Shown here: one piece after another, positions 1,187 to 31,943 of the stretch | Position numbering within the stretch: position 1 is the stretch's first letter | How the letters are laid out: each line of letters opens with the position of its first letter | Assembly (NCBI GenBank): GCA_038889235.1 | Contig: JAWAHN010000001.1 | Span: 180,001 to 212,000 of the forward strand | DNA length: 32,000 nucleotides | DNA from: Candidatus Jordarchaeales archaeon | Lineage (GTDB): Archaea; Asgardarchaeota; Jordiarchaeia; Jordiarchaeales; Freyrarchaeaceae | Direction: 5' to 3' | Program-made: the position numbers and the translations under genes | The notes under the pieces: model-generated | What the model saw: the letters and a program-made list of their open reading frames with translations, nothing else | The model's database searches: none | Told to the model about the DNA's origin: nothing

Positions 1187-1201
1187 TATGCGACACCTCC
1201 T

Positions 1202-2395: not shown

Positions 2396-2403
2396 TAGAC
2401 AGC
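2384..2403. repeat. Perfect 10-bp tandem duplication (AATAGACAGC)x2 spanning the start of the 397-aa gene
   Basis: Read directly: 2384-2393 and 2394-2403 are identical. Confidence 0.9.
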
Positions 2404-2453
2404 CCTCCTCATAAAATCGCTCCTCCTCAATTCTTTGGAATCAAGGACGTTTT

Positions 2454-2489
2454 TCTGATATATATATATCGATCTGATATATATATCGA
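2454..2489. repeat. Tandem TCTG(AT)6CGA / TCTG(AT)5CGA microsatellite-cored palindromes in a divergent intergenic region
   Basis: Read directly: two adjacent units with self-complementary G(AT)nC cores, n=6 and n=5, within an AT-rich stretch (about 2440-2530). Confidence 0.85.
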
Positions 2490-9902: not shown

Positions 9903-10811
9903 TCAGCCTGATCTTTTCCTTATGAAGTCGCTTAGCCTCTCCTTTATTTCGACGAGCCCCACCTCGTTTATCTCCATAACATAGGTGTTCGTGTCGTGCC
10001 CGGACATGCGGCACCCATCTATCCTTATTGTTCTCAGCACGCTTCCTAGAGGAAGGCCATAGAGACCGGCGTCGAACTTGGTCTCCATAAGCTTCTTGTC
10101 CATTACTATCGTTCCGTCAACTATGTGGGCTACTGCCAGTCCACCGGCAGCTTCAGCCGTCTCGGACCCCTGGGACGAGCGCTTCTGGGATACTATAATG
10201 GACGTCAAATGAAACCTTTTAAGGGAGTTGTACACTATGCGGACTATCTGGCGGGCCATGACCTCCCTGTGCTCGTAAAGCCCTGTTATACTGTCTATGA
10301 CCACCACGTCAACTCTCCGTGACTTGACAGCGTACTCCATAGTTTTAACCAGCGCAGAGGTGTTTTCCCTAAGCATGGGTTCCTGCGAGACGTCTATGAC
10401 TGAGATGTTTCTCTCTACGTTCCCAAAATTAAGGTCTAATGCAACCGCCTTCTGCTTAAGAGACGTGTAGAGGAATTCTGCAGGGTTCTCGGTGGTCACG
10501 AAAAGAACCCGACTACCCCTCCCAGCTTGGAAGACGGCGAACTGCTCGGCGAAGACACTCTTCCCCGTGTCGGGTATACCAACTAGGTTCATCACAGCTC
10601 CCTTAGGTATACCACCTAGGGGCTTCCTCACAAGTCTACCAGAAACTTCATCATAATAGACGGTGAAGAAAAGATCGTCAAGCTTCGTCCCCGTCGGAAC
10701 GCCCACTATCTCCGGCGCTTTACCCTTAAGACGAGGAAGTTCGACAATATAACGGGAGTAGTCTATTTCGGGCTCGCTCCTAGCGGCCCTAGCGGCATAT
10801 CCTTCCTCCAA
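9903..10811 (-). CDS. Single-domain KaiC/RecA-superfamily ATPase, AF_0795-like
   Basis: GVPTG..LDDLF...GGIP, Walker A GIPDTGKS, Walker B VVVIDSITG, SQKR and AAGGLAVAHIVDG motifs. Confidence 0.88.
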   Translation of the reverse strand: MEEGYAARAARSEPEIDYSRYIVELPRLKGKAPEIVGVPTGTKLDDLFFTVYYDEVSGRLVRKPLGGIPKGAVMNLVGIPDTGKSVFAEQFAVFQAGRGSRVLFVTTENPAEFLYTSLKQKAVALDLNFGNVERNISVIDVSQEPMLRENTSALVKTMEYAVKSRRVDVVVIDSITGLYEHREVMARQIVRIVYNSLKRFHLTSIIVSQKRSSQGSETAEAAGGLAVAHIVDGTIVMDKKLMETKFDAGLYGLPLGSVLRTIRIDGCRMSGHDTNTYVMEINEVGLVEIKERLSDFIRKRSG

Positions 10812-15683: not shown

Positions 15684-17289
15684 TAAACACATTGCCTCGC
15701 TTGTCAAGGAGGCGGTTTCGCTTGCCCTTAAAGACTTCTACTGCCCCCCGGTCCCAGACCCGGAGGTCAGCGTTGGAAAAGCTAGGAAAACCATGTTCTA
15801 CATTACTGAGGGGAGCTGGAAAGTGCACATAAACGTCAACGAAATCCCACCACTGGAAGAGAGAGAGCTTGTAAAATTCTTCCGGTCCATATGCAGACAC
15901 GAGTTGGGACATTACACTGTATGCCCTTACGATATGACAAATTCCTTGCTTATCCTTAGAAGCGTGATGAAGAATGTCGGGCCAGAACTAGCAGGCTTCG
16001 TCGCCAACTTTTTCTGCGACCTTATCGTCGACCACTACCTCTTTGAAAGATACCGCGAGGAAACACTCTGGGAGAAGAAGGTTACAGCTAACTGGATTGC
16101 CAACTGCTTTGACTATCCAAGCGAGCTGTGGGCTTTACTCATTAAATGCTACGAGAAAATGTGGAACGTGAAAATCCTAGAAGATTTAAGAGTAGCGATG
16201 GTTGTGGATGAAGTTGCAGCAAAGATAGTTAAGGTGATCAAGAGGGGTGGGGTGTTCAACGAGAAGACATGGCCCAGGAAGGCTGGCAAGGTTGCCGAGA
16301 TAATAAGGAACTTCTTGGAATGGGTTCGTAGGGGAGAGGAAGCCAGTTACGACGGATTCACAGTCCCAGAGGATGTCGCGAAGATGATGAGAGGAGACCC
16401 GTTGAAACCACCGCTCGGAAGGAGCGGAGACTATGAGAAAGCAGCGGAGAAGTACATTGAGGAAGGCGGAAGAGTTGAAGAATTTGTCGAAACAATTAGG
16501 GCGGCTGGGCTTAACAAAAACACAAGGGAGATTTTGAGGGCGTGGTATAGGGCTAAGGCGAAATTGAGAATTAAGGTTAAAATCTCCTCGGTGAGGAGGA
16601 GAAAGGAGGATGTGCAAGTTTACCCTGACGTTTGGAGAATTGAAGACCCGTTAGAGGAGCTTGACATACCGCTCTCGCTTCAGTGCTTCCCTAAACTTAT
16701 ACCCGGCCTGACGACTAAGAAGTGGGTCAAGAGTTCAAGTGAAACTGTCAAAGAAAAAGGGGAACCCCCGGACATGTTGATAGTCCTCGACAGTTCCTCC
16801 AGCATGAGCTCTAACGATGGGTTGCCCTTTGACCTAGCTCTCGTAGCAGCCTTCTCGGCTCTTAAGTTTGCGATGAGCAAAAACTGCAGAGTTGCAGCCA
16901 TCAATTTCTCCAATGGAGTGATAGAGTGTTACTGGACCAGGGATAGAGTTAAGGTTGAAGACGTCCTCTTAAGCTACCAGGGGGGCGGCACTGTTCTCCC
17001 CACGAAAAGAATATCGAAACTCGTAGAGGAGAACGGATTCAAAGTCCTGGTGCTAATAATAACTGACACTGGGTTGGCGAACTGGGACGAGGCTGTGAAG
17101 GAGCTTGGAAGGCTCGTAGCCATGGGGCACAGCGTGTGCATGTTCTTTATAGGAGGACGTGAAGGTGAGCTCAACGAGGCGCACAGGAAGTTTCTCTCCA
17201 TGGGTGGGAAGATATATCCCATCCCGGACATTGAGAAGCTACCAGATGTGGTGATAGATGAGGTTAAAGGGCACTACCAGGTAGGGTGA
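15664..17289 (+). CDS. HExxH metallopeptidase-like N-domain plus C-terminal vWA domain protein
   Basis: RHELGHY motif. MIDAS elements DSSSS, GGGT and ITD. GTG 15664 follows a GGAGGAGGT RBS (the ORF track starts at 15610). Confidence 0.85.
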   Translation: MTRKRNNKHIASLVKEAVSLALKDFYCPPVPDPEVSVGKARKTMFYITEGSWKVHINVNEIPPLEERELVKFFRSICRHELGHYTVCPYDMTNSLLILRSVMKNVGPELAGFVANFFCDLIVDHYLFERYREETLWEKKVTANWIANCFDYPSELWALLIKCYEKMWNVKILEDLRVAMVVDEVAAKIVKVIKRGGVFNEKTWPRKAGKVAEIIRNFLEWVRRGEEASYDGFTVPEDVAKMMRGDPLKPPLGRSGDYEKAAEKYIEEGGRVEEFVETIRAAGLNKNTREILRAWYRAKAKLRIKVKISSVRRRKEDVQVYPDVWRIEDPLEELDIPLSLQCFPKLIPGLTTKKWVKSSSETVKEKGEPPDMLIVLDSSSSMSSNDGLPFDLALVAAFSALKFAMSKNCRVAAINFSNGVIECYWTRDRVKVEDVLLSYQGGGTVLPTKRISKLVEENGFKVLVLIITDTGLANWDEAVKELGRLVAMGHSVCMFFIGGREGELNEAHRKFLSMGGKIYPIPDIEKLPDVVIDEVKGHYQVG

Positions 17290-18116
17290 AACGCTTGAGC
17301 ACGTGGAATGACAAGGTTTCCAAGGCGGCTTTCGCGTGCTGTAGGAAAAGCATGGAGACGCTGAGGGTAATCCTTCACGCCTGGCTTAAGAGAGGCACGC
17401 TGAGAGAGAAGGGGGTTCAGCCTATTAGTAGGGTAGTTGTCGTCGCCGAGGAAGGGATGATGGCTGAGGAGGCCGTCAAGGAGCTCCTAAAAGAGACTGG
17501 GGTCAATTTCAGGAAGGTGGAGGGGGAAGGAGGAGTTAGCATGGTGGTCGACGGTGGCGGTGAGGAGTTCACCGTAGAAGTAGTGAGGTGTGAGAGGGAT
17601 CAGAGCGCGCGTGACGGGCTTACTTTGGTCGTTGAAAGACCGGGGGTTGCTGACAGGATGGAGGCTTTGAGGGTTTTGGCGTCAGAGCTTGGCGATCTCG
17701 ACTTGAAGAGTGTAGCGGAGGCTTGTGAGGGCTTCACGACGTCAGACATTGTGAAACTCGTCCAGTTTGCAGCTTCGAGAAGCATAGCTGAGGGGCGGGA
17801 GAAAGTTGAGGGGGGTGACTTTATGGAGGGAGTATCCGCTCTGCGAAGGGAGGCAAGTGTTCTAGGTGAGACGCTTCCCGACGACCTATCAGAGCAGCTC
17901 TACATTATGGCGGTCAGTGAGAGCGGCGAGGTTTTCTCGGAGCTCGTCCACAAAGTCAACTCTGGGGAGAGGCTCGACAGGAGACTTGAGAAGGCGCTTG
18001 CAAGGTACTCCTTCATCTTGTTCGACGAGCCCGAGGAGAGGATAATAAAGCTTGCAAGGGCTAGGGCGAGCTACGAAAGGCTCAGAAAGGTCTTTGAGGG
18101 TGGGCGGCAGAATTGA
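17286..18116 (+). CDS. Degenerate AAA+-like protein: AAA lid present, no Walker A/B
   Basis: DLDLKSVAEACEGFTTSDIVKLVQFAASRSIAEGREKV...DF resembles the small helical lid of classical AAA ATPases (PAN/Cdc48/FtsH type). It has 4-nt overlaps with both neighbours. Confidence 0.65.
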   Translation: MKRLSTWNDKVSKAAFACCRKSMETLRVILHAWLKRGTLREKGVQPISRVVVVAEEGMMAEEAVKELLKETGVNFRKVEGEGGVSMVVDGGGEEFTVEVVRCERDQSARDGLTLVVERPGVADRMEALRVLASELGDLDLKSVAEACEGFTTSDIVKLVQFAASRSIAEGREKVEGGDFMEGVSALRREASVLGETLPDDLSEQLYIMAVSESGEVFSELVHKVNSGERLDRRLEKALARYSFILFDEPEERIIKLARARASYERLRKVFEGGRQN

Positions 18117-21100
18117 ACGGCTTCAAACTCACTTCACTACAACTGAAAAATTTTCTCACATACAGTGAAGAATATCTGAGACTCCCAAAGGAGGGCTTGA
18201 TAGTCATCATAGGCGGAAATGGAACAGGCAAGACCAGCCTATTCAACGCCCTGCGGTTCGTCCTCGGCTCTAATCAGAAAGATCAAAGGTACCGCTCATG
18301 GAGCGACTTCATAAACAACCGTGTGAACGCCGCGTACGGTTGGGTTGAAGCCGTCTTTGAGGGAAACGGAGAGACTATTAAGCTGAGGAGAGAGGTGAGG
18401 CGCGGGGAGGCACCGAGATCATACGTCAACGGGAGAAGGGTAAGCGCGGACGAGTTGAGAAAAGTTGTCCGCGAAAAGCTTGGGATAGACCCAGATAACC
18501 CCCTGGTCTTCGTGCCTCAGGGACGTGTAGATGCGATTAGAGACATGGAGACGGAGAAGCTGAGAGCTTTCATAGAGGAGCTGACTGGTCTCGCAGAGAA
18601 CAGAAGGATTATCGATGAAAAGGAGAGGGAACTTGAAGTGGTACGAAGGGAGGCGGAGAAGCTTAGGGAGGATATTTTAACCTTTCAGGAGAGAGAGGCA
18701 AGGCTGGCTCTGAAGTTTGAAAAGTGGAAGAAGAGGAGGGAGGTGGAGGAGCGGCTTAAGGCGCTTGAGAGCGAGGCCGTATGGAGCAGGATGGCCGAGT
18801 GGGAGGCTAAACTAAAGGAGCTGGCGGAGGCTGAAAGGAGGGCGGCAACATCTGTTGAGGAGAAGTACGCAGCTTTCAAGAAGGTTGCTGGGGAAGTAGA
18901 AGAGCTGGAGAGGGAGTTGGGTGCTAAGAGGGCAAAGGAGGCGGAGATTGATGCTGAGGTTAACAGGCTTAGGGAGGAGAGGATGAACCTTGAAGCTAGA
19001 TTAAGGGGTGTGTTGGGAGGGCGGGATAAGACGCTGGAGAATTTGAGGAGGAAAGAGGAAGAGCTGGAAAGGATTAAGGGAGACGTCGAGGCTCTGAGGA
19101 GGAGAGTGAAGTGGCTTGAGGAAAGAGAGAAAAAACTTGAGGACGACAGGCAGAAAGTGCTGTCAAAAATCGAAGAGTTAAGGAAAGAGCTAGAGAGGAT
19201 TTCCGTTGAGAAGGAGAAGTTTAGGGGGTGGGAGGCTGAGTGGAGAGCTGCTAAGGCCGAGCTGGAGAGGGTGAAGGAGAAAATTGAGGTGCTGAATAAG
19301 GAGAAGGCTCGGGTTGGCTCTGAGCTGGAGAGAGTGGGAAGGAGGATTCTGGAGTGTAACAGGAGGGTGGCGGAGCTCGTTAGCATAGTGGAGAATTACG
19401 ATGAAGATGGGTTGAAGAAGAGGAGAGAGGAGCTGAGGTCGGAAAGGGAGAGGCTTGTAAGGGCGAGTATACGTGTTGAGGATGAAGTCAAGAAGTACGA
19501 TGAGAAGATTAACGCGCTCAGAAAAATGCTTTTAAACGTTGGTAGCAGGGTGCCGGAGCAAGTCGAAATGCTGGAGAGAGATGTGAAAAACAGGAGGATG
19601 GAGGTGGAAGGCCCCCTCCTTAAGCTGATCGAGGTGGATGACAAGTATGCTAAGGCCACCGAGGCGATTTTCGGGAGAGAGCTGCTGGCATTCGTGGCGT
19701 TCGACGAACCCGACTTCCAGGTTTTGAACGAACTTAGAAAAAAGTATAACGCCTGGTGCACCATATACCTTCCGAAAACCCTTGAAGCACCCGCTCTGGG
19801 AAGGATAGAAGACGAAGGGGTTATTGGCTGGCTCGAGGATGTGCTGAAGTTCCCTGAAAGGGTCAGGGTGATTATAAGGGAAATAACCCGAAGGACTTTG
19901 TTAGTTAAAGACTTTAAGAGCGCGCTTGCGCTCAGCAGGAAGTATAAGGGGTTGAGGTTTGTTACAGTTGACGGCGAGGTAGTGGAGGACTTCGAAAACG
20001 TCTTGCGAAGCCCCCACAGGAAAATTAAGGGACTCCTGGACGTTAAGAGAATCACGGAAGAACTGGAGGAGAGCGTTATCGCTAGGGGACGGTTGGAGGA
20101 GGAGCTTAAATCCTTGAAGGAAAAGTTGGACGAGTTGAGGAGGGAGGAGGAGCGGGTTGAAAGAGCGCTCACAGTTATCCCGGAGTGGAGGATGCTTCTA
20201 AGGGAGAAGATGACGCTCGAAGAGGAGGAGAAGAAGCTGAAAGATGAGTTGAGGATGATTGAAGAGAATTTGGCGAGTATTTCAGCGGACAGGGAGAGAG
20301 CGGAAAGGACTCTAAGAAAGGTTGAGGAGAGGAAGCCTAAGGATTACACTGAGCTCGAGAAGGCTGAGATGGAGGCACTAAGAGAGCTCGAAGGGACGAG
20401 GAGAGAGCTTGACAGGTTGGAGGCTGAGCTGAGAAAAGTGATGAAGGAGAGGGAGGGGGCGCTGCTAAATATGAAGATGCTCGAAGCAACCGGCGAGTCT
20501 GTTTCAAAGGAAATCGACCTACTAAGGGAGGAGGTAGTGAGGGGGAGCGAGGAAGCTGAAGAGCTGACTAGAAAGATAGATGAGCTTAAAATAGTGGTTG
20601 AAGAGTGGCTGGCCCGTAAGAGGGACTATGAAAGGTCTATTGAAGTGCTGCTCCAAAAGCTGGGGGAGAGAAGGGAAAGAATGAAAGTGTTGGAGGAGAC
20701 ACTTGGAGAAGGGAGGAAGGAGCTGGAGAGTATTAAGAAAGAGATTTCCGCCGCGAAGGAGAGACTGAAGGAGCTGGAAAGGGAGGTGAGGGAGAGAGGG
20801 TTTGTGAAGCCTGCTAGGGTTAGGTCGCTCCCCGAGATCGAAGTGGAACGCACGCTCCTCGAGGAGGAACTTGCAAGCTTAGCAGACGTGGATGAAGGTG
20901 TCGTGAAAGAGAAGGAGGAGTTGGAGAGGGAGAGAGGATATCTCACTGAGAGATTTGAGAAGGTTAGAGAGGAACTGCAGGGAATTTTGGAGGAGTTAGA
21001 GAGAAGAAAGGAAGAGCACATGGTTAAACTGGTTGAGGCTGTCGATGAAGTTGAGAGGGAGGTTAACGAGCTGCTTGGGAGCGTCAACATGAGGTGCAAG

Positions 21101-21466
21101 TTAAGGGTTGCGGGAGGGTACAGTGAAGCTGGAGTGGAGGTTAAGTTGAGCGTAAAGGGTGGACCTTTAGTCAACGTTACAGCTGCAAGCGGAGGGGAAA
21201 GGTGTTTTTTCGCCATAGCGCTCATGGCGGCACTACAGAAGAAGGCGCGTACACCTCTCGTAGTACTAGACGAGCCGTCGATGCACCTTGACTCTGAAAA
21301 CACCGAGAGGACTGGAAAGATACTCAAGGAGATTTCTTCGGGGAGACAGCTGCTTGTCTTAGTTCCCGACAAGTACTTAGAGTTTACGAAGTATGCTGAC
21401 CAGTGCTACGGGACCGCCACTAGCAGCGGGGTTAGCGTAGTGATACCCGCCCGAATAAAGTGCTGA
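18113..21466 (+). CDS. smc: SMC-family ATPase with Smc5/6-like motifs (1117 aa)
   Basis: Walker A GGNGTGKT, Q-loop FVPQG, two long coiled coils around a central hinge (EGPLLKLIEVD...VTVDG), signature SGGE and Walker B LDEP..HLD. Confidence 0.92.
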   Translation: MNGFKLTSLQLKNFLTYSEEYLRLPKEGLIVIIGGNGTGKTSLFNALRFVLGSNQKDQRYRSWSDFINNRVNAAYGWVEAVFEGNGETIKLRREVRRGEAPRSYVNGRRVSADELRKVVREKLGIDPDNPLVFVPQGRVDAIRDMETEKLRAFIEELTGLAENRRIIDEKERELEVVRREAEKLREDILTFQEREARLALKFEKWKKRREVEERLKALESEAVWSRMAEWEAKLKELAEAERRAATSVEEKYAAFKKVAGEVEELERELGAKRAKEAEIDAEVNRLREERMNLEARLRGVLGGRDKTLENLRRKEEELERIKGDVEALRRRVKWLEEREKKLEDDRQKVLSKIEELRKELERISVEKEKFRGWEAEWRAAKAELERVKEKIEVLNKEKARVGSELERVGRRILECNRRVAELVSIVENYDEDGLKKRREELRSERERLVRASIRVEDEVKKYDEKINALRKMLLNVGSRVPEQVEMLERDVKNRRMEVEGPLLKLIEVDDKYAKATEAIFGRELLAFVAFDEPDFQVLNELRKKYNAWCTIYLPKTLEAPALGRIEDEGVIGWLEDVLKFPERVRVIIREITRRTLLVKDFKSALALSRKYKGLRFVTVDGEVVEDFENVLRSPHRKIKGLLDVKRITEELEESVIARGRLEEELKSLKEKLDELRREEERVERALTVIPEWRMLLREKMTLEEEEKKLKDELRMIEENLASISADRERAERTLRKVEERKPKDYTELEKAEMEALRELEGTRRELDRLEAELRKVMKEREGALLNMKMLEATGESVSKEIDLLREEVVRGSEEAEELTRKIDELKIVVEEWLARKRDYERSIEVLLQKLGERRERMKVLEETLGEGRKELESIKKEISAAKERLKELEREVRERGFVKPARVRSLPEIEVERTLLEEELASLADVDEGVVKEKEELERERGYLTERFEKVREELQGILEELERRKEEHMVKLVEAVDEVEREVNELLGSVNMRCKLRVAGGYSEAGVEVKLSVKGGPLVNVTAASGGERCFFAIALMAALQKKARTPLVVLDEPSMHLDSENTERTGKILKEISSGRQLLVLVPDKYLEFTKYADQCYGTATSSGVSVVIPARIKC

Positions 21467-21467
21467 G

Positions 21468-22040
21468 GTGGGTGGCGTGATAGACGAGGTACTGGCGATG
21501 GTTGAGACTGGAAAGGTTAACCCAGCCGACGTCGACTTGAAAGCCCTCCTAGTGGAAGTTAGGGAGGCTAGGAGTGGAGTCGAGTGGGGGGAGAAGATTT
21601 CAAAGTTAATACGGCTGGCTAGGCTTAAAGTTAGGGCACTGATTGAAAGTGTGATCTTACGGTTTGGGAAGCCGCCAGGTTTCGGCGTCACCTCCCCGCT
21701 GGTAATTCCGTGGATTGGTTTTAGTGAGGCTGAGAGGGCGCTTAGAGAGCTGGTGGAAGCTATGTCTAAGAGAATGGCTGCGAAGGGTGGTGACGAGACC
21801 TCACCAGCACTGCTCGTAGATAAGGAGACCGTTGAACTACATGTGGCTGAGGAGAGAAAGTACAGGGAATACGTGCAGGGTAAAATTAGAGAGCTGGGAG
21901 AGGCGAGATTGGAGGACTTGCTTGAAGGCGACATCTTAGAAAGGGCTTCCATCTTTGTAGAGGTTTTGAGGCTGATAAGCGAGGGGGTTTTAGGGTATGA
22001 CAAGTTGAGCGGGAGGGTTTTTGCGCTTGAACGAGTATGA
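21468..22040 (+). CDS. scpA: ScpA-like kleisin (short, 190 aa)
   Basis: N-terminal helical pattern (VETGKVNPADVDL...LIRLARLKVRAL) and C-terminal wHTH (ERASIFVEVLRLISEG.L). Directly follows smc. Confidence 0.7.
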   Translation: MGGVIDEVLAMVETGKVNPADVDLKALLVEVREARSGVEWGEKISKLIRLARLKVRALIESVILRFGKPPGFGVTSPLVIPWIGFSEAERALRELVEAMSKRMAAKGGDETSPALLVDKETVELHVAEERKYREYVQGKIRELGEARLEDLLEGDILERASIFVEVLRLISEGVLGYDKLSGRVFALERV

Positions 22041-22479
22041 AGTAGTGTTTGCTAGTATGGTTGCCAGTGGTTGGAGAGGGGTTAGCGTTAGGGATGTTGC
22101 AAGGGTCCTAGGAGTGGAGGGGGAGTTGGGAGAGTGGTATGCGATAAGGACTTTAGTGGGTATGGCAAAGATTTTAAGGCCTCTGGGTGTAGTCTTGAAG
22201 TTTAATCCTGTGACTGGGATGTGGGTTGCAACGCAAAGTAGTAAAACAGCTAAGGCTGCTGGGCTCCCGAAAAGGTTGAAGGCAACCCTCGCCGCCGTGC
22301 TTAGAGTTCAAAGCGAGCTTGGAGTTGCATCCATAGAAGAGGTTGTGAAGGTTAGGGGGAAGAGCAGGAGAAGCACTCTGGCAGATCTTAGGGAGCTTGA
22401 AGAAAAAGGGCTTGTTGAGCGTGTAGGAAAAAACGAGTTTAGGGTGTCAGGGGTGCTTGCCCCCTTCCTGGAGGGGTGA
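22021..22479 (+). CDS. scpB: ScpB-like KITE (tandem winged-helix) protein
   Basis: Two wHTH-like halves; the second (LKATLAAV...IEEVVKVRG...LRELEEKGLV) follows the ScpB pattern. Overlaps the kleisin stop. Confidence 0.7.
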   Translation: MRLNEYEVVFASMVASGWRGVSVRDVARVLGVEGELGEWYAIRTLVGMAKILRPLGVVLKFNPVTGMWVATQSSKTAKAAGLPKRLKATLAAVLRVQSELGVASIEEVVKVRGKSRRSTLADLRELEEKGLVERVGKNEFRVSGVLAPFLEG

Positions 22480-22487
22480 GCGCTGGT

Positions 22488-25400
22488 TCATAGCTTCCTA
22501 GCTTTCGCCGTTACATCTTGTAGGACCACGTTAAGCGCCTTTATTAGTTCCATGTTTGTCGTGTATATCCCGACGGGTTGGGGGGCTGCGACCGCCAAAG
22601 CCATCTCTTCGTTGTCCCTGTTTATAATGTAGAGGTTTGTCGGGTAGTGTCTGATTTGTACGTTGGGTGGGAGACCTGCGGGCGGAACACCTTTAACGTC
22701 GGTGACTATTATGGCTCTTTGCCTCGTGAGTTGCTTTACAGTGTCGAGTGGAACGTCGTCTATCGATGGGACCACCATGGTTATGGTGCTCTTGGTGTTT
22801 AGTAGGAGCGCCTTTATGAGTAGGTCCATGTGGGGTTTTCCCGCTATTCTACCGGTGTCCTCGAAGGGTTGAGGCTCTATTTCTTCGGCGAGCCTTGCTA
22901 CCGCGGATATTGTCTCGAGAGAGCGTGAAACGAGGTTCAGCCCTTTGTCGACGAATTCGGCGATCCGTGCTCCGCTTTCCTTAACAAGCGACGAGGACGA
23001 CCTCGCAGAGGAGGACAAGAGCTCATTGACCGAGGACTCAGCAGCTGAAACACTGCCCCGCCACTCTTCTAAGCTCTCTCCGAGTATCTTTGAAATCCTC
23101 TGCTCCGCTTCACTCGCTGTCGCGTCAAGCTCTTTGGAGACTGCTTCAACATGCTGCCTAACGCTTTGAAGGGACTGGAAGAGGCTTGTTTTAAGCGTTG
23201 CATGCCGCTTTTCGAGAGACGCGTGGAGGGAGCGCTGGAAGTCAGCAAGCTTGTCCTTGAGCACTGAGGAGGGCTTCTCCACAATGCTCGAAAGCCCTCT
23301 TACCTTCACTTCTATGACGTCGCGAATTTCCGCCGCGTAGCTGTCAATTGTCGAAAGCAAGTCGTACTTCACCTTTCCAGTGTACGACGCTAGGTCCCTT
23401 GAGACGGTAGCCGCCACCTCTTCGAGCCCCTTTAGAACCTTACCCTTCACCTCTTCCAGTGAGGCTACGCCTTCGCCCAGCAGCCTGCCAGCCTCCTCCC
23501 TGAACTCGGCTACGAATCCCGTCAGCTTTGAAAGGCCTTCCTTCAGCTCATCAGTAAGCCGGCGTTCCAGCTCATCTCTTATCATCGATATCTCCTTCAC
23601 TGAGAAGGAGACTTCTTCCTCAAGTGACGATGCAAACTTGTTAAGCTCCTTGCTTGTTCGCGATGCCACGTCAACTGCTACTTCGCTGAGCTTCGACCTA
23701 ATTTTTTCAGTTTCTTTCTCAGCAGCCTTAGGCAGGTTTGAACCAAGGGATGCAATAGCCTCCTTAAGCTTCGCCACTGATTCTCCAAGTTCGCTGTCAA
23801 CTTTACCTATCAACTGGTTGACGCTTGCCGAGGTTTCTCTGAGGGATGATGTGGCTTCATCAACAGCTTTCTTTAATTCATCTACCTTAGAGCTCATGGA
23901 CTCCTTTACCTTACCCGCCTGCTCCACCCAGGAGTTAGCCAACTCTCTCGTTCTCGCCGACATTGACTGGAACAAGCCCTTAACATTTTCTTCGGCGTTT
24001 GACAGGCTGCGGGCGACGCTCTCCCTAGCACTTGTAAGGGACTTTGCGGCTTTTAACCTTGAGGATTCCAGGTTCTCTTTTATGCTTGAAGCTGTGGACG
24101 AAAGCTTAGACTCTGCCTGCGACGAGGCCTCCTCAAGCATGGAGGACAGCTCTGATAGGAGTCTGTCGGCGGCCGCGCTAGTTTTTGAGCTTAGCGACGC
24201 TGCAAGTTCCGCCACCTTTTTCTCTAGTGATGAAGACAACTCCCCAACTAGTACGTTCACTTGCATTAGCGCCGCTTTCCCCTTTTCTGCGGCTTCATTA
24301 ACCTGTGAGGTAAACGAGTCCACAACGTTCCTAGTCGAAGAGAGAAGACCCCTCAACGTTGAGAGACTTTCGGTGTAGGACTTACCCAGCTGTAACCACG
24401 CCTCCTCGGCTTCAGCTTCCATTGTAGAGGAGTGCGCGGCCACCTCCTTCTCGGCTTCAGCTATCTTGGAACTTATTTTCGTTGATGAACGTGCTGTGGA
24501 TTCCCTTACCGAGCTGGCTTCGGCGGCGGCTTTTTCTAAGAGTGCAAGCATAGCGCTCTTAGCAGAGTTGATTGAGGTTATGGCTTTTTCTGCTTCGTGC
24601 GAGCTTATGGCGTTAAAGCGCTCTTTGAAGTCGTTGAAGAGCGCGTCCACCCGGCTGCGGAGGTCGCCCAGTTGTTTCGAGGTGAGCGTGTTGTACATTG
24701 AGGTGGCATCCCTCAGCTTTGAGGTTAACGCTCTGAATGATTCGTTTAGGGAGCTTGCCGCACCACTGACTAGGGATAGGGCGCCCTCCATGGCGACCCC
24801 GATGTTTCCAGTCATTCTGTTATAGTTGTCAACAATTGTCGACGATAAAGAGTCAACTGTAGCGTTCACCTGCAAGCACGCTTTCTCGAAGCTGGACGAG
24901 GCAGACGAGAGAGTTTCAGCGACTTTCTCAGCGTAGCTCTCAACTTCCCTTCTAATGTTGCTTCCCATGTTCGTAATGGATGCGCGGGCTTTCTCCACAG
25001 TTTTTCCTAACGCTTCCCCAACTTGTGACAATGTCTCAGCTGACAGCGAAGATATTCTCTGCTTTGTGGACTCGTCCTCGCTTTCTATGGATGCAAGCAA
25101 GCTTAACGTTCCCTTCTCAATTCGCTCTCCTAGGTACGTTATCACCTTGTCCACTTCGTCTATAAGCGAGGAGGCTATGGATTCAACTCTTTTCCTCTGG
25201 TCCTCGATAGCGTCTTCAAGTTCAGACCTTAGGCTCAGAACAGCGTCTCTTTGCCCTTTCAACGTGCTTAAGAGGGAGAGGAGTTCATCCTTACCAAGCT
25301 TCTTCTTGCCCTCAGCAACCTCTTCTATCGTTTTTATCACGTCAAGCACCTTGCTGACAACTGCTCTAGCTTTCTCCCCGACCGACGCCAAGCTGCTCCT

Positions 25401-27908
25401 TTGGAAGGCTATGCTGTCACTGAACCTGGCGGACACGTCATCTTTGAGTCTAGCCAGCTCGGAGGATACTGCTTCAGAGAAGGACTTCAAGCTCACATCA
25501 AGCTTTTTCCTTCTCTCGTCGAGCACCTTTGAAAGACCCGACACGAGGCGGTCCAAAAAGTCTTCAACTAGTTTAGCTGTCTCTCTGCCTTCTTTCTCAA
25601 ACGCGGATGAGAGCTCTTCTTCCGCCTTCTTGCAACTTTCAGCAAGTAGGGATGTGGATTCCTTCACATGGCGTGACGTGGAGCTCAGGGAGGAGGAAAC
25701 CTCTTTGGCCACAGCGTCTATTTTGCCTTTCGCATCCCCCGCGAACCTGCCAGCCAGTTCCCCGAACTCTTTTGCAGTCGATTCCACTTCTTTCAGCGTG
25801 TCTTCCTTCGCTTTTCTGACTTTTTCCAGTGTGCCCTTTACAGCGTCCTCGGCTTCTGTTTCAGCCTCATTGGCTGCACTCAACACCACCTTCAAGTATT
25901 CTTCAAGTGCGCTCAACAAGTTCTTTTCGAGCTTTTCAAGGTCAGACTTAACCGACGATGATACGGATTCGGAATAGCTCTTCAGTGATTCGGTTATGGA
26001 AGCGATTAATGCCATCGATGATGACGCAATGTTTTCCGCAGCTGCGGATGCTTCTTTTGATACAGCTTCAATGAGCGCTGCGCAGTTTTCCCCAGCATCG
26101 TTGATAGCCTTCGACGCCAACGCCGCCACACTTTCGAGAACGTTTTTTAACCTACTTTGGAAGGAAGACGACAACCTTTTTACTTCAGACAGGAACTTCT
26201 CCCTAATGGATGAGGCAAGCTTCTCATACTCGCCTAAAGTCGATTCAATAGATGAGACTTCTTCTAGAAGGGAGCTGGAAGAGGCTGAAAAGGAGTTCTG
26301 GAGCCCGGATAGTGAGGTTGAGGCTTTGTCTGCCAGCTCTGCGGCTTTTCCCCTGAGTGACGCAATCTCTTCCGATGCCGAACTGGTAAAAGAGCCACCC
26401 CCCTCTCTGATGGAGGCTACCAGTGACTCTAATTGTTTTTCCGCGCTGCTTCGGAAGCCGCTCAGTGCGCCCCTAACTGTTAGGGAGACAGACGAGAGAG
26501 CGTCTTTGACCAGTTCTTCGGCTAATTTGAGGGCTGACTCTACGTCCGCTTCTGCTCCTGCAACCATGCTTGATATGGTAGAGTTGCACTCACGAAGCAC
26601 CGAACCCGTGGACTTGGCAGCTTCTTCAAGCGACCCCTGCAACGAATTCGCAGCTTCCTGAACTATGCTTACTGCGTTGTCTATTGATGAAGTAGCTTTT
26701 TCAGCCTCGCTCTTCAACGCGCCGCGCAACTCTGTAAGCCTTCCCGAGGCGCTCTCAGCAACATCTGTCAGAGCGCGTGAAAGCTCGGAGCTCACAGACC
26801 TTAACGACGACGCCATGGACTCGACTTGCTCTTGTACTAGGACCTTGAGCCCTTCAGTCTCTCTTATCAGGGACGCGTATGCCTCATTCACTGTTTCAAC
26901 CATCTCATCTGCCGTTGAGAGTATGCTCTCCCTAGCGTCCTCTGATGCCCCTTGACATAACTCTGAAAGACGCGTCGAGAGACGGCCTTTTATTTCTGAG
27001 AGCCGGTTTATGGGTGCCGCCAGCGACTTAGCTAGCTTAGCTGACGTTTCCTCAAGTTCGGACTCAATTTTTCTCAGGGCTTCATCTGATATGCTTGATA
27101 GGCTTCCCTTAAGCGTCTCAGCAAACCTTTCTATTCTAGCTATGGATGCTTCAAGTTCGGGTGAAACTCTTACAAGAAGGTCTCTCGATCTTTCCTCCAT
27201 GCTTCGCAGTGCAGAGTTGACGGATTCTTCTACTCGTTCCCTAAACTTTGAGACCGATGAGCGCGTTTCTTCCATAAAATCTGACAAAAGCTTTTCAATT
27301 GAGTCCTTCAACGCAAGGAGGGATGATGTAAAATCTTCTACGGCTGCTGTGACACTCTCCACTACTTTGCTGGCTGCCAAGAGAGAGTGCTCCTCGTGCG
27401 TTTTCACCGCTTTATCTATGGCTTCATTTATGCTTCGTGCTTCACCTAGAATCTTCACCCTTGGCTCCTCTACGAAAGCCCTGATTTTGCCCACGGTTTT
27501 CTCTTGCACCGAGCTGAGCTTCTTCTCAAGTAGTTCAAGGCTTGCCTCGACGGTCGAGCGGAAGCGGGCGGAGTGCTCCTCCGCCTTCTTGAGTATTTCC
27601 TCGGCGGTCTTAGTGCTCTCGCGTAGAAGACCCTCTTTTAACTCTAAGAGGGATTTCTTCAGCTCATCCACAGTTTTACCGGTGAGGGTTATTCGCGGCG
27701 TTAGGGCAATGTACTGGTCGACTTTTCCGGCTATCTTTTTCACGAGGCCGGCTAACTGGAGGGCGGCGAGCTCCCTTTCAACTTCCTCCAGTGGAAGTCC
27801 TGTGTAGACGGATAGCTCGGCTGCCGTCTTAGCCCCGAACCCTACACATGCCGCGTAAATCTTCATTCTCGCTCCTTCGAGCCCGACCTCTTTTAAAACC
27901 TCCTCCAA
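22488..27908 (-). CDS. Giant protein (1806 aa): TrmB-like wHTH, about 1600 aa of Ser/Ala-rich helical repeats, TrmB/PLD-like C-terminal domain
   Basis: N-terminus LKEVGL....KIY......KTAAELSVYTGL....V...L..L...GLV. C-terminus TKSTITMVVP...VQIRHY...LYIINRDNEEMAL (degenerate PLD-like fold). TTG start after GGGTGA. Confidence 0.85.
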   Translation of the reverse strand: MEEVLKEVGLEGARMKIYAACVGFGAKTAAELSVYTGLPLEEVERELAALQLAGLVKKIAGKVDQYIALTPRITLTGKTVDELKKSLLELKEGLLRESTKTAEEILKKAEEHSARFRSTVEASLELLEKKLSSVQEKTVGKIRAFVEEPRVKILGEARSINEAIDKAVKTHEEHSLLAASKVVESVTAAVEDFTSSLLALKDSIEKLLSDFMEETRSSVSKFRERVEESVNSALRSMEERSRDLLVRVSPELEASIARIERFAETLKGSLSSISDEALRKIESELEETSAKLAKSLAAPINRLSEIKGRLSTRLSELCQGASEDARESILSTADEMVETVNEAYASLIRETEGLKVLVQEQVESMASSLRSVSSELSRALTDVAESASGRLTELRGALKSEAEKATSSIDNAVSIVQEAANSLQGSLEEAAKSTGSVLRECNSTISSMVAGAEADVESALKLAEELVKDALSSVSLTVRGALSGFRSSAEKQLESLVASIREGGGSFTSSASEEIASLRGKAAELADKASTSLSGLQNSFSASSSSLLEEVSSIESTLGEYEKLASSIREKFLSEVKRLSSSFQSRLKNVLESVAALASKAINDAGENCAALIEAVSKEASAAAENIASSSMALIASITESLKSYSESVSSSVKSDLEKLEKNLLSALEEYLKVVLSAANEAETEAEDAVKGTLEKVRKAKEDTLKEVESTAKEFGELAGRFAGDAKGKIDAVAKEVSSSLSSTSRHVKESTSLLAESCKKAEEELSSAFEKEGRETAKLVEDFLDRLVSGLSKVLDERRKKLDVSLKSFSEAVSSELARLKDDVSARFSDSIAFQRSSLASVGEKARAVVSKVLDVIKTIEEVAEGKKKLGKDELLSLLSTLKGQRDAVLSLRSELEDAIEDQRKRVESIASSLIDEVDKVITYLGERIEKGTLSLLASIESEDESTKQRISSLSAETLSQVGEALGKTVEKARASITNMGSNIRREVESYAEKVAETLSSASSSFEKACLQVNATVDSLSSTIVDNYNRMTGNIGVAMEGALSLVSGAASSLNESFRALTSKLRDATSMYNTLTSKQLGDLRSRVDALFNDFKERFNAISSHEAEKAITSINSAKSAMLALLEKAAAEASSVRESTARSSTKISSKIAEAEKEVAAHSSTMEAEAEEAWLQLGKSYTESLSTLRGLLSSTRNVVDSFTSQVNEAAEKGKAALMQVNVLVGELSSSLEKKVAELAASLSSKTSAAADRLLSELSSMLEEASSQAESKLSSTASSIKENLESSRLKAAKSLTSARESVARSLSNAEENVKGLFQSMSARTRELANSWVEQAGKVKESMSSKVDELKKAVDEATSSLRETSASVNQLIGKVDSELGESVAKLKEAIASLGSNLPKAAEKETEKIRSKLSEVAVDVASRTSKELNKFASSLEEEVSFSVKEISMIRDELERRLTDELKEGLSKLTGFVAEFREEAGRLLGEGVASLEEVKGKVLKGLEEVAATVSRDLASYTGKVKYDLLSTIDSYAAEIRDVIEVKVRGLSSIVEKPSSVLKDKLADFQRSLHASLEKRHATLKTSLFQSLQSVRQHVEAVSKELDATASEAEQRISKILGESLEEWRGSVSAAESSVNELLSSSARSSSSLVKESGARIAEFVDKGLNLVSRSLETISAVARLAEEIEPQPFEDTGRIAGKPHMDLLIKALLLNTKSTITMVVPSIDDVPLDTVKQLTRQRAIIVTDVKGVPPAGLPPNVQIRHYPTNLYIINRDNEEMALAVAAPQPVGIYTTNMELIKALNVVLQDVTAKARKL

Positions 27909-27915
27909 ACATTCT

Positions 27916-30219
27916 TCACCCCTTTGAGAGCTCCTTGCTTACGGCTTCAAGCGCCTTGTAAGCATCCTCTACAACCTTTAGAAGGGAGGAGATCTTCTTC
28001 GAAATGTTGCCTCCAGCTTTCTTCACCTCAGATTCGTTCTTTTCGAGGAACTCCTGGAACTCCTTTAGGGACGACTCCACCTTGGAAAGGGCTTCTCCTA
28101 TCTGGGAGGCTATGTTTGACAGAGTGCTTGAAAGTTCCTCTCTCCCGGACTCTGCAACTTTCTCAATCTGTTTCGATGCACCTTCATTTATGCTTCCAGC
28201 TTGTGCGTCTATTTTGCCGTGGTGCTCTTCGAGGACACGCTTCACCGACGAGGTGAACGATGAATACGCGGAATCCACAGAAGTTATGGCGCTGCTGAAT
28301 GAGGCCTCAACAGAGGCCGCGTTCGACTCAACCTCCTCTCTAAGTCTCGAAATGCCGTCTGATACCTCACCTTTCAGTTTTCCGGAGAGGTTTAGCAGAG
28401 CCTCTTCCACGTCTGATTGCGCTGACTCTACGGTTGAGGCTACCGAGGAGTCTAGTTCCAAGAGAGCGCGGCTGGAGACGCCTTTCAGTCGTTCACCCAA
28501 TTTCGCTATAGCTTCCACTAGAGCTGCACCCTGACCATCAACTTCTCCAATCAGAGTTTTTAGCTGGAACTCCGAAGCTCTCTTGGCTTCCTCGAAGTCA
28601 GCTTGTACAGCCTTTTGCCTCTCCTCTATTCTATACGCTGTTTCCTGTGAGATGTCGTCGACGCGTTTCTTAACGCTCTCAACCAAGCTTTTGAGGCTTG
28701 CCTCAGCACTTTCCTTAAATTTGTCTGTTCTCTTCGACGCTTCTTCCGCCATCTTGAATGCCAAAGAGGAAGTTTCTGTACTGAATGAGCTGCTCAGCTC
28801 TCTACCTGATTTGAGGAGGGCTTCAGCCAATTCGTGCATGCTGTTCTTGAAAGACTCCAGTTCGCTCCTCATCTTTTCTCTGCTCTCTCTCAAGCGCTCT
28901 TCGAACCCCTTGCTCACCTCTAGAACCCTCTCGTAAAATAGGTTGATCGACTCGTCCACTACGTTTGTGAACCCTTCCTCGTATTGTTGGAAGAGCGCTT
29001 GGATGAAGTTGAGTTCACTTGAAAGCGTCTCGTCGATGCTCTTGTTTATGGCTTCCACGGTCAACGTGAACTGGTTCACTAGGCTTGAAAGCTGCCCGCT
29101 CACCTTGTCCTGCAACGATTTCACCACGCCCTCCAGGTGTTCTAGGTAGTCTACTAGCCCGGACCCTAGATCAGACGTGAACGATGAGACCTTGCTGAAG
29201 AAAGCCTCCTTCTCCGCTTCTACAACCTGGTTCAGCTTTTCCTTCGCCTCGGCGCTCGCCGCCTCTATGGAGCTCACGGTTTCCGCAGCCACCGCATCTA
29301 TCTTTTCCTTGAACTCAGCTGTTAAGCGTTCAAGCCGGTTTACTAGGGTGGATGAAACTGTTGAAGCCTTGTCTCTGATTTCAGATGACATCGTTGAGAC
29401 CTGGGACTTGTATGCTTCAACCTCGCCACTAAGAGCCTCAGCTATCCTGCCAGCGCTTTCTTCAACCTCGCTTTTAAGTGACACTGCTGTGCTGTTCACC
29501 AGTTCCTTCGTGTCGTTCAGCGTGGAGACGAGATCTGCTGATGAGGACTCAAGCAGGCTTATATTGGACTTGAACGATGAGTCGATTCTTTCTTTCAACG
29601 AACCAACGTGCCGCTCAATGGAGGACTGTGATGAGGAGACAACCTCATCTATTTCGGACTGCAAGAGTAACGATGTCTCCCTTAACTTGGAGGACGACTC
29701 TTTCTTGAGGCTTTCCATAGTGGAGGTCAGGGTTGAAGAAGCGCTCTTGATGGTTTCCTCCACTATTTCCACGTGGTTTTCAAGCCACCTTCCAGCTGAT
29801 GACGAGACTTCGCGCAAAACATCGGCGACGCGCTCCCCGCTCTCCATAAGGGATGACTTTAAGGTCCCCTCTTCGCCGCCTACGGCTGAAAGAATGCTGT
29901 TCACGACGTCTTCTACGCTTTTCTTGAGCTCCTCAGCTTCCTCCGACACCAAAGCTCCAACTTTTTCAGCCATAGAGTCTATCCAGGACGATATATTGTT
30001 TTGAAGTTCCTGGACGACTGAGGAGAAGCTGCCTTTGAGCTCTTTCCCTAATGTTGCAGTGTCCTTCGAGGCTTTCTTAAGCTGGTTGACCATTGAAGAG
30101 AAGGCTTCAACAACGCTGGAAAACGATGCTTCAACCTCTTTTTGAAGAGAGGCAAGACTGCTCCTAGCCTCACCTATCTCGCCTAGGCGGGCGTCAATCT
30201 TCTGCCTTAATTTTTCCAC
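27916..30219 (-). CDS. All-helical amphipathic repeat protein (767 aa), apolipoprotein-like periodicity
   Basis: Long ORF rich in Ser, Glu and Ala with almost no Pro and an 11/22-residue hydrophobic periodicity. GGAGG RBS; 5-7 nt gaps to both neighbours. Confidence 0.85.
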   Translation of the reverse strand: MEKLRQKIDARLGEIGEARSSLASLQKEVEASFSSVVEAFSSMVNQLKKASKDTATLGKELKGSFSSVVQELQNNISSWIDSMAEKVGALVSEEAEELKKSVEDVVNSILSAVGGEEGTLKSSLMESGERVADVLREVSSSAGRWLENHVEIVEETIKSASSTLTSTMESLKKESSSKLRETSLLLQSEIDEVVSSSQSSIERHVGSLKERIDSSFKSNISLLESSSADLVSTLNDTKELVNSTAVSLKSEVEESAGRIAEALSGEVEAYKSQVSTMSSEIRDKASTVSSTLVNRLERLTAEFKEKIDAVAAETVSSIEAASAEAKEKLNQVVEAEKEAFFSKVSSFTSDLGSGLVDYLEHLEGVVKSLQDKVSGQLSSLVNQFTLTVEAINKSIDETLSSELNFIQALFQQYEEGFTNVVDESINLFYERVLEVSKGFEERLRESREKMRSELESFKNSMHELAEALLKSGRELSSSFSTETSSLAFKMAEEASKRTDKFKESAEASLKSLVESVKKRVDDISQETAYRIEERQKAVQADFEEAKRASEFQLKTLIGEVDGQGAALVEAIAKLGERLKGVSSRALLELDSSVASTVESAQSDVEEALLNLSGKLKGEVSDGISRLREEVESNAASVEASFSSAITSVDSAYSSFTSSVKRVLEEHHGKIDAQAGSINEGASKQIEKVAESGREELSSTLSNIASQIGEALSKVESSLKEFQEFLEKNESEVKKAGGNISKKISSLLKVVEDAYKALEAVSKELSKG

Positions 30220-30224
30220 TTCAA

Positions 30225-31943
30225 TCAGCCTCCAATCTTTTCTTTAATAAGTCTGAAGTCCCTCTCTAGCGCTTTATTCCCTCTAAAAGATTTCAGGGCT
30301 TTCTCGCACAGAGAGAGGGCATGGGCGGAGTCTCCAGCTTTGATGAGGTACTCGGCCGCCCTCCTGTAAAATACCCTTGAAAGCATCAAGGAACCCGCCT
30401 TGAAGTACTCGTCTCCGGCATCCTCAAACATCCTAGCTGCAGACCTAGCAGACGACTTTGCCCGCCACTCGACGCCAGACTTTTCGTAGAGCTCTGAGGC
30501 TTGAGCCAACATCACCCTTGCGTAGTGCAACTTTCCAGCGTCAAAGAAGAGCCTCGAAGCCGCGTCTAGAACCATTCCCGCTCTTTCGTAGTCACCCAGC
30601 CTTCTGTGGAGGTCTGCCGCAATGTTAAAGAGGACGCATGCGTCGTAGAATAGTCTTTTTTCAAGTGCCTCCTTAGCGGCGTCTTCAACACTGCTAGCGA
30701 GCTCGACGACTAGGGATTGAAGTTTTCTCGCCGCGAGTATTGTGGCGGAATCTTTAAACCAGTTGACGATCGTCTCGTTTACGGGCATCCCACTCTCGAC
30801 TGTTTTAAGGATCAATTTTAGAAGAATGCTCGCCTTGCCATAAATCTGGTCGACATTGACAGATAGCCGCAGGTCGTGGAAGAGGGCGTCGGAGACCAGA
30901 AGTATAAACGAGTCCTCGACCTCCACCAACCCCTTTTCCTTCAGTGACGCTATGGTGCTCTCGAAAATGTCGCCAAGCGACTGTTTGATGGCGTCGAGGG
31001 GGGCGAAATTGTATTCTCCCGAGATTATACGGTCTATTACGAAGGTCTCATCCCCCGAAATTTGAAAGATGCCGCCCAGCGGGTTTTCCTTTAAAAGCTC
31101 GCTTGCCTTTCTGAGTGACTCATATGTGACCCCGCGTTCACCCGAAACTGCGAGTGAGGAGTAGAGGAGTAAGCAGAGCTTGTATGGAATCCCGCCAGAG
31201 TCCTTTATCATTTCATCTACAACTTTCTCTTCTACCTTGAAACCGAGCTTCCCTGATAATTTTTGGATCAGAACACGCATGTCAGATATCGGCATGGGTC
31301 CAAGCTCGACCACGTGGAAAAGGTTACTAGCACCCCCCACTATTTCCCCCACGAAATCTCTCTCGGCGGCTACAACAAAAAACGCGGGAAAACCGCTTTC
31401 CGCGAAAACTGAAAGAACTCTCCGGAATAAAGGGTAAGCCGAGTTGTATCCAAGCCAGGCGAAGCGCTCAAAAGAGTCACAGAAAAAGAAGACAGGCCTC
31501 GTGATGGCTTCTTTCACCTTGTCCATGTCCTCCATGAAGCGCCCAATGAACAACTCCTCAAATGCGGAGTCAACTTCCTTGGGTAGGGGGGGAGGAGCGG
31601 CAAATGGCTTCTCCCCTATGAGCTTCTTGCGAGCTCCAGGAGCTAGGGAATCTAAGCGCTTCTTAACTTCTTCAAAGAAGGTTCGTGCCCTAGAGAAGGA
31701 GACTGTAAGAGGTATCGTTGTGACGCCTTCAACACTTGCAATATCCCTAAACTTGTTGAGGAGAGATGACTTGCCTATCCCGGGGATGCCCGAAACTAAA
31801 ACGGCTCTCCTAGTCTCAGAGCCAGACTTAACATCCAGTATGAATCGCTGGAAGAAGCGCACTTCATCTGACCTTCCAGTAAAAGTATCGCTCGCTGCAG
31901 GTGACAGTAAGGGCCTAAGCAACAATCCACCCCCAACCCACAT
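30225..31943 (-). CDS. STAND-like/archaeal P-loop ATPase with a wHTH-like segment and C-terminal TPR/SNAP-like repeats (572 aa)
   Basis: FTGRSDEV, Walker A SGIPGIGKS, Walker B FFFCDSFE, SGGIPY (GxP motif). C-terminal repeats such as AADLHRRLGDYERAG, ASELYEKSG and AAEYLIKAGD. Confidence 0.82.
   Translation of the reverse strand: MWVGGGLLLRPLLSPAASDTFTGRSDEVRFFQRFILDVKSGSETRRAVLVSGIPGIGKSSLLNKFRDIASVEGVTTIPLTVSFSRARTFFEEVKKRLDSLAPGARKKLIGEKPFAAPPPLPKEVDSAFEELFIGRFMEDMDKVKEAITRPVFFFCDSFERFAWLGYNSAYPLFRRVLSVFAESGFPAFFVVAAERDFVGEIVGGASNLFHVVELGPMPISDMRVLIQKLSGKLGFKVEEKVVDEMIKDSGGIPYKLCLLLYSSLAVSGERGVTYESLRKASELLKENPLGGIFQISGDETFVIDRIISGEYNFAPLDAIKQSLGDIFESTIASLKEKGLVEVEDSFILLVSDALFHDLRLSVNVDQIYGKASILLKLILKTVESGMPVNETIVNWFKDSATILAARKLQSLVVELASSVEDAAKEALEKRLFYDACVLFNIAADLHRRLGDYERAGMVLDAASRLFFDAGKLHYARVMLAQASELYEKSGVEWRAKSSARSAARMFEDAGDEYFKAGSLMLSRVFYRRAAEYLIKAGDSAHALSLCEKALKSFRGNKALERDFRLIKEKIGG

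Follow-up and report, generated by a model that had tools for sequence, protein, structure and literature searches.

What kind of protein is encoded by an archaeal gene whose product runs to 1806 amino acids, begins like a TrmB-family regulator, and then continues as one almost uninterrupted helix? The gene, P0001, lies in a 32,000-nucleotide stretch of contig JAWAHN010000001.1 from the Asgard archaeon Candidatus Jordarchaeales archaeon (GenBank assembly GCA_038889235.1, positions 180,001 to 212,000), referred to below as the window. No known prokaryotes are closer to eukaryotes than the Asgard archaea, and the organization of their chromatin and cell interior is poorly understood. An earlier note, made from the letters of the window alone, had described P0001 as a TrmB-like protein stretched by a hendecad (11-residue repeat) rod of ~1600 aa, which would extend to about 240 nm and act as a DNA-binding filament or as a tether between the chromosome and a membrane or lipid. 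Our analysis bears out the domains and the repeat and points to a different geometry, in which the rod most likely folds back on itself at a conserved mid-point loop.

Two terminal domains of TrmBL2 type

The 1806-aa open reading frame (ORF) is a real gene: it has no internal stop codon, and orthologs have similar lengths (~1806 aa at 44% identity and 1812 aa at 27% identity). It begins with a TTG codon, preceded by a Shine-Dalgarno-like stretch, AAGGGGTGA, and located 7 nt past the stop of the upstream gene. The DNA was found again in hot-spring metagenomes. The protein is 15% Ser and 12% each Glu, Leu, and Ala, and only five Pro residues occur between residues 79 and 1672, so the description of its center as a nearly Pro-free helix of ~1600 aa holds.

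The N terminus is a winged helix-turn-helix of the TrmB type, as the earlier note had proposed. Residues 5–71 match Pfam TrmB (PF01978) with 22.6 bits, slightly below the cut-off of 25.6, and a phmmer search matched TrmB (PDB: 3qph) at E 2.3e-6. A profile built from 40 N-domains of the family matched the same TrmB entry at E 6e-17 and TrmBL2 (PDB: 5bpd) at E 1.4e-13, with the Y-x-A-x-x-P motif that follows the wing included in the match.

For the C-terminal domain, no solved structure was matched significantly, whether the search used the single sequence or profiles of the family (best values, E 0.62 for TrmB 3qph and E 0.12 for FAM83B), and no TrmB family in Pfam was matched by the P0001 domain; the C-domain of one family member does match PF11495 (E 2.5e-6). 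An AlphaFold2 (AF2) model of residues 1645–1806, with 78 homologs in the alignment, reached a predicted local distance difference test score (pLDDT) of 93. In a Foldseek search with this model, chains of TrmBL2 and TrmB took the first nine places (E 3e-8 to 8e-7), and PLD-fold proteins such as NucT, Nuc, FAM83, and F13 came next. These matches confirm a PLD-like domain of the TrmB type. The HxK of the PLD superfamily catalytic motif, HxK(x)4D, is absent from residues 1679–1806; the D and E of an R-D-x-x-E motif are invariant in alignments of the family. When an AF2 model of an ortholog was compared with TrmB (PDB: 2f5t), the alignment was restricted to residues 110–241, and the fit to the first subdomain of the TrmB effector-binding domain had a Z score of 15.9 and a root-mean-square deviation of 2.1 Å. 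The second, sugar-binding subdomain of TrmB is absent: P0001 does not extend beyond the final helix of its PLD-like domain and is therefore TrmBL2-like in this respect. Against the NCBIfam tran_reg_TrmB equivalog model, P0001 scored 33.7 bits, with a cut-off of 600. The suspicion that P0001 is not an ordinary sugar sensor is thus well founded.

Judged from sequence profiles and modeled folds, the two ends of P0001 correspond to the two halves of a DNA-binding protein of the TrmBL2 type. TrmBL2 (TK0471/PF0496; PDB: 5bpd, 5bpi, 5bqt, and 5box) is a chromatin protein of Thermococcales, and P0001 shares its domain order: a winged helix, an amphipathic pairing helix, and one PLD-like domain, with no sugar-binding subdomain. 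TrmBL2 has ~264 aa and a pairing helix of ~35 aa, whereas ~1600 of the 1806 residues of P0001 lie between the two domains; sequence identity between the C-domains is 12–16%. P0001 also differs from TrmBL2 in its hendecad repeat, its conserved mid-point loop, and its tip module, and its gene shares an operon with those for a STAND ATPase and another rod protein. TrmB itself (PDB: 3qph and 2f5t), a sugar-sensing regulator of Thermococcales, is the best sequence match of the P0001 winged helix. TrmB and TrmBL2 are dimers or tetramers held together by the pairing helix (entries 3qph and 5bpd).

Periodicity and geometry of the rod

Fourier analysis of hydropathy, a check named beforehand, agreed with the proposed 11/3 periodicity and not with heptads. 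Over residues 81–1670, the spectrum peaks at a period of 3.646 residues with a power of 145, against 0.4 at 3.5, 0.2 at 3.6, and 25.8 at exactly 11/3; 200 shuffles of the rod gave a mean power of 5.8 and a maximum of 12.8. The local period in 132-aa windows stays at 3.62–3.67 (~3.66), and the SMC arms encoded in the same window, which serve as an internal heptad control, have periods of 3.51 and 3.49. Core positions a, e, and h are 59–74% hydrophobic and positions d and i 25–35%, a narrow stripe as in hendecad coiled coils. The spectrum has no peak at 22 or 11, and the polar face shows an even distribution of basic and acidic residues, with no class-A charge segregation.

The repeat is a property of the whole family. 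A search of 1.84 billion sequences with a C-domain profile returned 605 cluster representatives at 50% identity, 358 of them at E ≤1e-10, and the domain sits at the extreme C terminus in every family match. We examined 152 members, namely the best 150 of the 605 representatives together with P0001 and P0002; 87 are complete (Met and winged helix), with lengths that run continuously from 350 to 1907 aa. All rods tested (members >400 aa) read 3.62–3.70. An 11-state register hidden Markov model (HMM) found only nine breaks in 1594 residues of P0001 (positions in Table 1), or nine per 145 repeats; some relatives have none in 97, and two members (P0043 and P0070) hold a single register over 1072 residues. 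We know of few hendecad coiled coils as long and as regular as these rods.

The rod of P0001 has a distinct center. Residues 823–910 are 80% identical to the ortholog from another genus (G004), versus 16–57% elsewhere in the arms. The GKKKLG loop within this stretch reads GDKKKFSLG or GDKKKLSLG in Freyarchaeia orthologs of 1168–1812 aa, and other members carry Pro-containing loops exactly mid-rod (KKPDP, RKPFP, and LPRGAP). The landmarks for arm length were the conserved Pro behind the wing, the loop, and a conserved EIEP motif; the N-arm was counted from the Pro to the loop and the C-arm from the loop to the EIEP motif. The arm lengths are 795 and 806 residues in P0001, exactly 795 and 806 in P0002 and P0010 at 27% identity to P0001, 564 and 565 in L014, 461 and 497 in P0007, and 461 and 505 in L015. 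A register break falls within 2% of the rod mid-point in 43 of 86 complete members with rods of 370–1676 aa; at 12 control centers in the same members, breaks were found in 3–17, and the mid-point excess is seen in all six length classes. Unlike the register HMM, a score for the helix breakers Gly, Pro, Asn, and Asp showed no mid-rod concentration (13% of members).

Changes in one arm are mirrored in the other. Because the rod is repetitive and BLAST alignments with distant homologs are ambiguous, insertions and deletions (indels) were mapped only for pairs with at least 54% identity. Between L014 and P0007 (69% identity), indels in the N-arm (365–492, 84 aa) are mirrored in the C-arm (806–920, 74 aa), and their sizes are mostly composed of 11- and 7-residue units. 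Register breaks in P0001 lie 317.5, 455.5, and 515.5 residues from the loop in the N-arm and 318.5, 444.5, and 489.5 residues from it in the C-arm. An AF2 model of the 1168-aa ortholog P0007 has helices that end at residue 536 and restart at 545, and this break (537–544) coincides with the loop motif of that protein, GDKKKLSLG (536–544). MarR-like chains align with the P0007 model over a range from residue 1 to 1035–1038; in this low-confidence model, the end of the rod would therefore pack on the head.

Read from sequence, the mid-point loop, the equal arms, and the mirrored indels indicate that the two rod halves pair antiparallel. The likeliest form is a rod folded back on itself with antiparallel halves, which would be ~118 nm long at ~0.148 nm per residue and with arms of 795–806 residues. 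The arithmetic behind the 240-nm rod of the earlier note is correct for a single-pass helix; the extended geometry is what is unlikely, given the loop, the arms, and the indels.

Length itself appears to be constrained. The alignment of P0002 with P0010 (54% identity) has no gap in 1812 residues, and P0001 and the G004 ortholog show no gap of at least 4 aa over 1643 residues at 44% identity; two species of one Freyarchaeia genus have versions of 1168–1176 aa and 1339 aa. By these alignments, rod length is tightly held within lineages and altered in jumps that touch both arms. Arms that are residue-exact between orthologs at 27% identity point to strong selection on physical length.

Several observations weigh against a fold-back. 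The full-length P0007 model is weak (mean pLDDT 62; predicted template modeling score 0.34), and a family-wide count of mirror pairs of register breaks is not sharply peaked. Within P0001, mirror correlations have their best centers at residue 863 for local period (r 0.76) and at residue 881 for conservation (r 0.77), but comparable side maxima make them consistent with a fold-back and not decisive. About half of the family has no detectable mid-point break, including three paralogs in this genome; the members with 1072-aa rods lack any register break, and P0001 has five breaks in the C-arm versus three in the N-arm. The rod protein encoded next to P0001 stays at ~770 aa, whatever the length of the giant protein (1168–1812 aa). 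Finally, an antiparallel intermolecular dimer would explain all of the mirror evidence just as well, and the hairpin is favored over that dimer only by the helix-breaking character of the central loop. A complex prediction with residues 1–300 and 1450–1806 (score 0.17, mark 0.32) counts neither way.

Such a dimer would be ~240 nm long, with the dyad at its center and, at each end, a composite TrmBL2-like head that combines the winged helix of one chain with the C-domain of the other, and could form a bivalent bridge between distant DNA sites. It would account for the equal arms, the mirrored indels, the conserved center, and the mid-point break; members with unbroken registers over 743–1072 aa would require no turn, and TrmB and TrmBL2 dimerize or tetramerize through the same helix. 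The conserved Gly-x-KKK-x-Leu-Gly loop and the mid-rod Pro loops of other members, however, break the helix, and the AF2 model of the ortholog places the loop at the center. We regard the dimer as unlikely, although it is the most probable rival of the hairpin.

Operon partners and possible functions

P0001 and the two genes upstream of it were read as one operon because the gaps between them are just 5 nt (STAND gene to 767-aa gene) and 7 nt (767-aa gene to P0001). No effector domain was found by Pfam in the STAND protein, and no PADLOC model matched it. The 767-aa partner keeps an unbroken register over residues 51–723 in the register HMM. The STAND gene is kept upstream in 10 loci, and the partner is kept at ~770 aa beside the giant gene in several Asgard lineages. 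The complete cassette (STAND, ~770-aa rod, and giant) occurs in Jordarchaeales, Freyarchaeia, and further Asgard families, one of which matches a Promethearchaeota metagenome-assembled genome record. We considered a match in length between the partner (767 aa) and one arm (~800 aa), but it is true in this genome only; as the giant protein varies in length and the partner does not, a simple length-matched co-bundle is not general.

Sediment metatranscriptome contigs with 95–99% identity cover parts of all three operon genes (24582–31934), which hints at expression of these genes in a relative. Third codon positions account for 7 of the 9 differences listed in the winged-helix region and 2 of 7 in the rod piece. 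No raw metatranscriptome read was placed on this DNA in the ~3% of a further run that was covered, a run not shown to contain the organism.

The account that we favor, and to which we give slightly less than an even chance, takes P0001 as a TrmBL2-like DNA-binding protein with a tether role, associated with a STAND switch. The short pairing helix that joins the winged helix to the PLD-like domain would have expanded into arms of 795 and 806 residues, and these arms would pair antiparallel, turning at the Lys-rich GKKKLG loop (867–872). Because the arms would fold back at the loop, the winged helix and the C-domain would meet and form a TrmBL2-type head; the rod, ~118 nm long and nearly straight, would carry this head at one end and the conserved tip module of ~90–130 aa at the other. 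DNA binding by the head is predicted from homology to TrmB and TrmBL2. More tentatively, the rod may be a fixed-length spacer or tether that displays the tip far from the DNA, the tip being the business end, and the 767-aa single-helix protein and the effector-less STAND NTPase-TPR protein may assemble with the rod or switch it. In this model, the STAND switch would govern assembly.

The proposed form would resemble that of SMC, Rad50, and MukB, which have long antiparallel coiled-coil arms that fold back, N- and C-terminal parts that form one DNA head, and arm lengths conserved within lineages. Unlike them, P0001 has no hinge domain, zinc hook, or ABC-type ATPase head, and no P-loop family matches it in Pfam or NCBIfam. 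Its repeat is hendecad (3.65–3.67), whereas that of the SMC arms in the same window is heptad (3.49–3.51), and its fold-back is one that we infer.

If this account is correct, archaeal nucleoid architecture would gain a new element, namely fixed-length DNA-anchored spacers or tethers tied to a STAND switch ATPase. In this family, a small chromatin or regulator fold would have been turned into rods of tens to >100 nm. A broader extension, which we put forward as doubtful and largely speculative, is that Asgard archaea use DNA-anchored molecular rulers, lineage-fixed fold-back rods such as the four paralogs of this genome, with their TrmBL2-like heads on chromatin and their conserved tips docking to another cell structure, the longest of them under the control of a STAND switch and the 767-aa rod. 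If true, such rulers would be a prokaryotic forerunner of long coiled-coil tethers by which chromatin is positioned with respect to the envelope or cytoskeleton.

The main functional rival to the tether is a role in conflict or defense, in which the STAND NTPase-TPR protein would sense an invader, the rods would act as a scaffold or signal element like the ZorA tail, and the TrmB head would target DNA. Architectures with nSTAND1/AAA_16 are common in NLR-like immune sensors, and the ZorA tail profiles of PADLOC match both operon rods (up to 100 and 70 bits). The tail of ZorA in Zorya is a right-handed coiled coil of 70 nm, and its length is important for defense (PMC11946911); like the rod of P0001, this tail is very long, Pro-poor, non-heptad, and of fixed length, and it is thought to transmit a signal over tens of nanometers. 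The alignments, however, cover tail positions only (profile ~260–725), and the NCBIfam score is 58.9 bits with a cut-off of 190; the matches thus indicate a similar periodicity rather than homology. ZorA itself is a MotA-like pentamer of the membrane, its tail is parallel, and its MotA/ExbB-like membrane domain is absent from P0001 in the PADLOC and NCBIfam alignments. Further points against defense are the STAND protein without a PADLOC match, the lack of a nuclease or other effector domain, and the mode of inheritance. Identity of the cassette drops with taxonomic distance (79–85% within the genus, 44% within the family, and 27% within the order), so it looks vertically inherited; its neighbors have housekeeping roles, and mobile-element genes were not seen among them. 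A defense role is therefore improbable in our estimate.

Both rods also match the coiled-coil regions of LeoB and LmuB in PADLOC, which suggests that the long tails of several defense proteins share the same non-heptad periodicity.

Less probable again is a single-pass helix of 240 nm, parallel or monomeric, with DNA at one end and a membrane or lipid at the other end or along the helix face. P0001 does match Pfam Apolipoprotein (PF01442) with 157.5 bits over seven stretches (cut-off 90), as well as apolipophorin-III (ApoLp-III, PF07464) above its cut-off; 11/3 periodicity is typical of lipid-binding amphipathic helices, and the TrmB pairing helix could in principle just be lengthened. We attribute the Apolipoprotein match to the 11-residue amphipathic periodicity that P0001 has in common with apolipoproteins A1, A4, and E and apolipophorin-III. 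Unlike these proteins, it lacks Pro-punctuated 22-mers, a class-A charge pattern, and a secretion signal, and its hydrophobic stripe is narrow and coiled-coil-like; no transmembrane segment or signal peptide was seen in the translation, which was inspected without a prediction tool. The likeness is one of periodicity and speaks for neither common descent nor lipid binding, and the lipid or membrane tether of the earlier note is not borne out. A single-pass helix also leaves the mid-point loop, the equal arms, and the mirrored indels unexplained.

That P0001 is an ordinary TrmB-family transcription factor, its linker a neutral low-complexity helix or set of compact bundles with no architectural role, would fit the fast evolution of the rod (16–57% identity versus 64–89% in the domains) and the wide range of total lengths in the family, but it is very improbable in view of the residue-exact arms, gapless alignments at 44–54% identity, a register held for hundreds of residues, and the conserved tip module.

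Paralogs, coordinates, and neighboring genes

A match to the family was found in 33 of 41 related genomes, and full-text searches of the literature found no description of the rod family or the operon. This genome encodes four paralogs of 1806, 1308, 756, and 565 aa (Table 1). The STAND gene and the 767-aa partner are absent beside the three shorter ones. The gene for the 1308-aa paralog overlaps the end of a 294-aa ORF by 4 nt.

Table 1. Coordinates of P0001, its parts, its operon partners, and its paralogs; positions are those of the window unless a contig is given
Feature	Position	Strand	Basis or remark
P0001 gene, 1806 aa, TrmB-headed hendecad rod	22488..27908	-	Uninterrupted ORF, stop codon within coordinates; orthologs
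P0001 residues 1–71, TrmB-type winged helix-turn-helix	27696..27908	-	Pfam PF01978 and family profile; ends at conserved Pro after wing (YIALTP)
P0001 residues 72–866, N-arm, 795-aa hendecad helix	25311..27695	-	Periodicity, register HMM, landmarks; breaks at 354, 414, 552, 859
P0001 residues 823–954, conserved tip module	25047..25442	-	~80% identity to G004 ortholog over 823–910
P0001 residues 867–872, GKKKLG loop at rod mid-point, proposed hairpin turn	25293..25310	-	Motif in orthologs; helix break in ortholog AF2 model
P0001 residues 873–1678, C-arm, 806-aa hendecad helix	22875..25292	-	Periodicity, register HMM; breaks at 1045, 1131, 1188, 1314, 1359
P0001 residues 1679–1806, PLD-like TrmBL2-type C-terminal domain	22491..22874	-	AF2 pLDDT 93, Foldseek; conserved R-D-x-x-E, HxK absent
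767-aa Pro-free hendecad protein	27916..30219	-	Period 3.664, power 91.5; no other domain
STAND NTPase (AAA_16/nSTAND1), 572 aa, C-terminal TPR/SNAP-like repeats	30225..31943	-	First gene of operon; Pfam
Paralog L043, 1308 aa	G000:C1:689910-693837		Winged helix, hendecad rod, and C-domain
Paralog L044, 756 aa	G000:C3:375271-377541		Winged helix, hendecad rod, and C-domain
Paralog L045, 565 aa	G000:C1:423009-424706		Winged helix, hendecad rod, and C-domain

A convergent six-gene operon on the forward strand (13977–22479) ends 8 nt from the stop of P0001. It encodes a MoxR AAA_5 protein, a VWA protein, an AAA-lid protein, an SMC protein with a hinge, a 190-aa protein, and a 152-aa winged-helix protein, and was described as SMC5/6-like. 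Its adjacency is kept in two genomes of the same family (G003 and G004), and it was not seen beside the Freyarchaeia orthologs. Farther away, several ORFs at 410–4564 have no Pfam match, and a KaiC-like ATPase gene on the reverse strand (9903–10811) stands alongside genes for a P-type ATPase, an AMP-binding enzyme, and an old-yellow-enzyme oxidoreductase. Within P0001 itself, four long antisense ORFs (332, 340, 221, and 265 aa) lie on the forward strand between 23380 and 27807; they are probably a by-product of biased codon composition.

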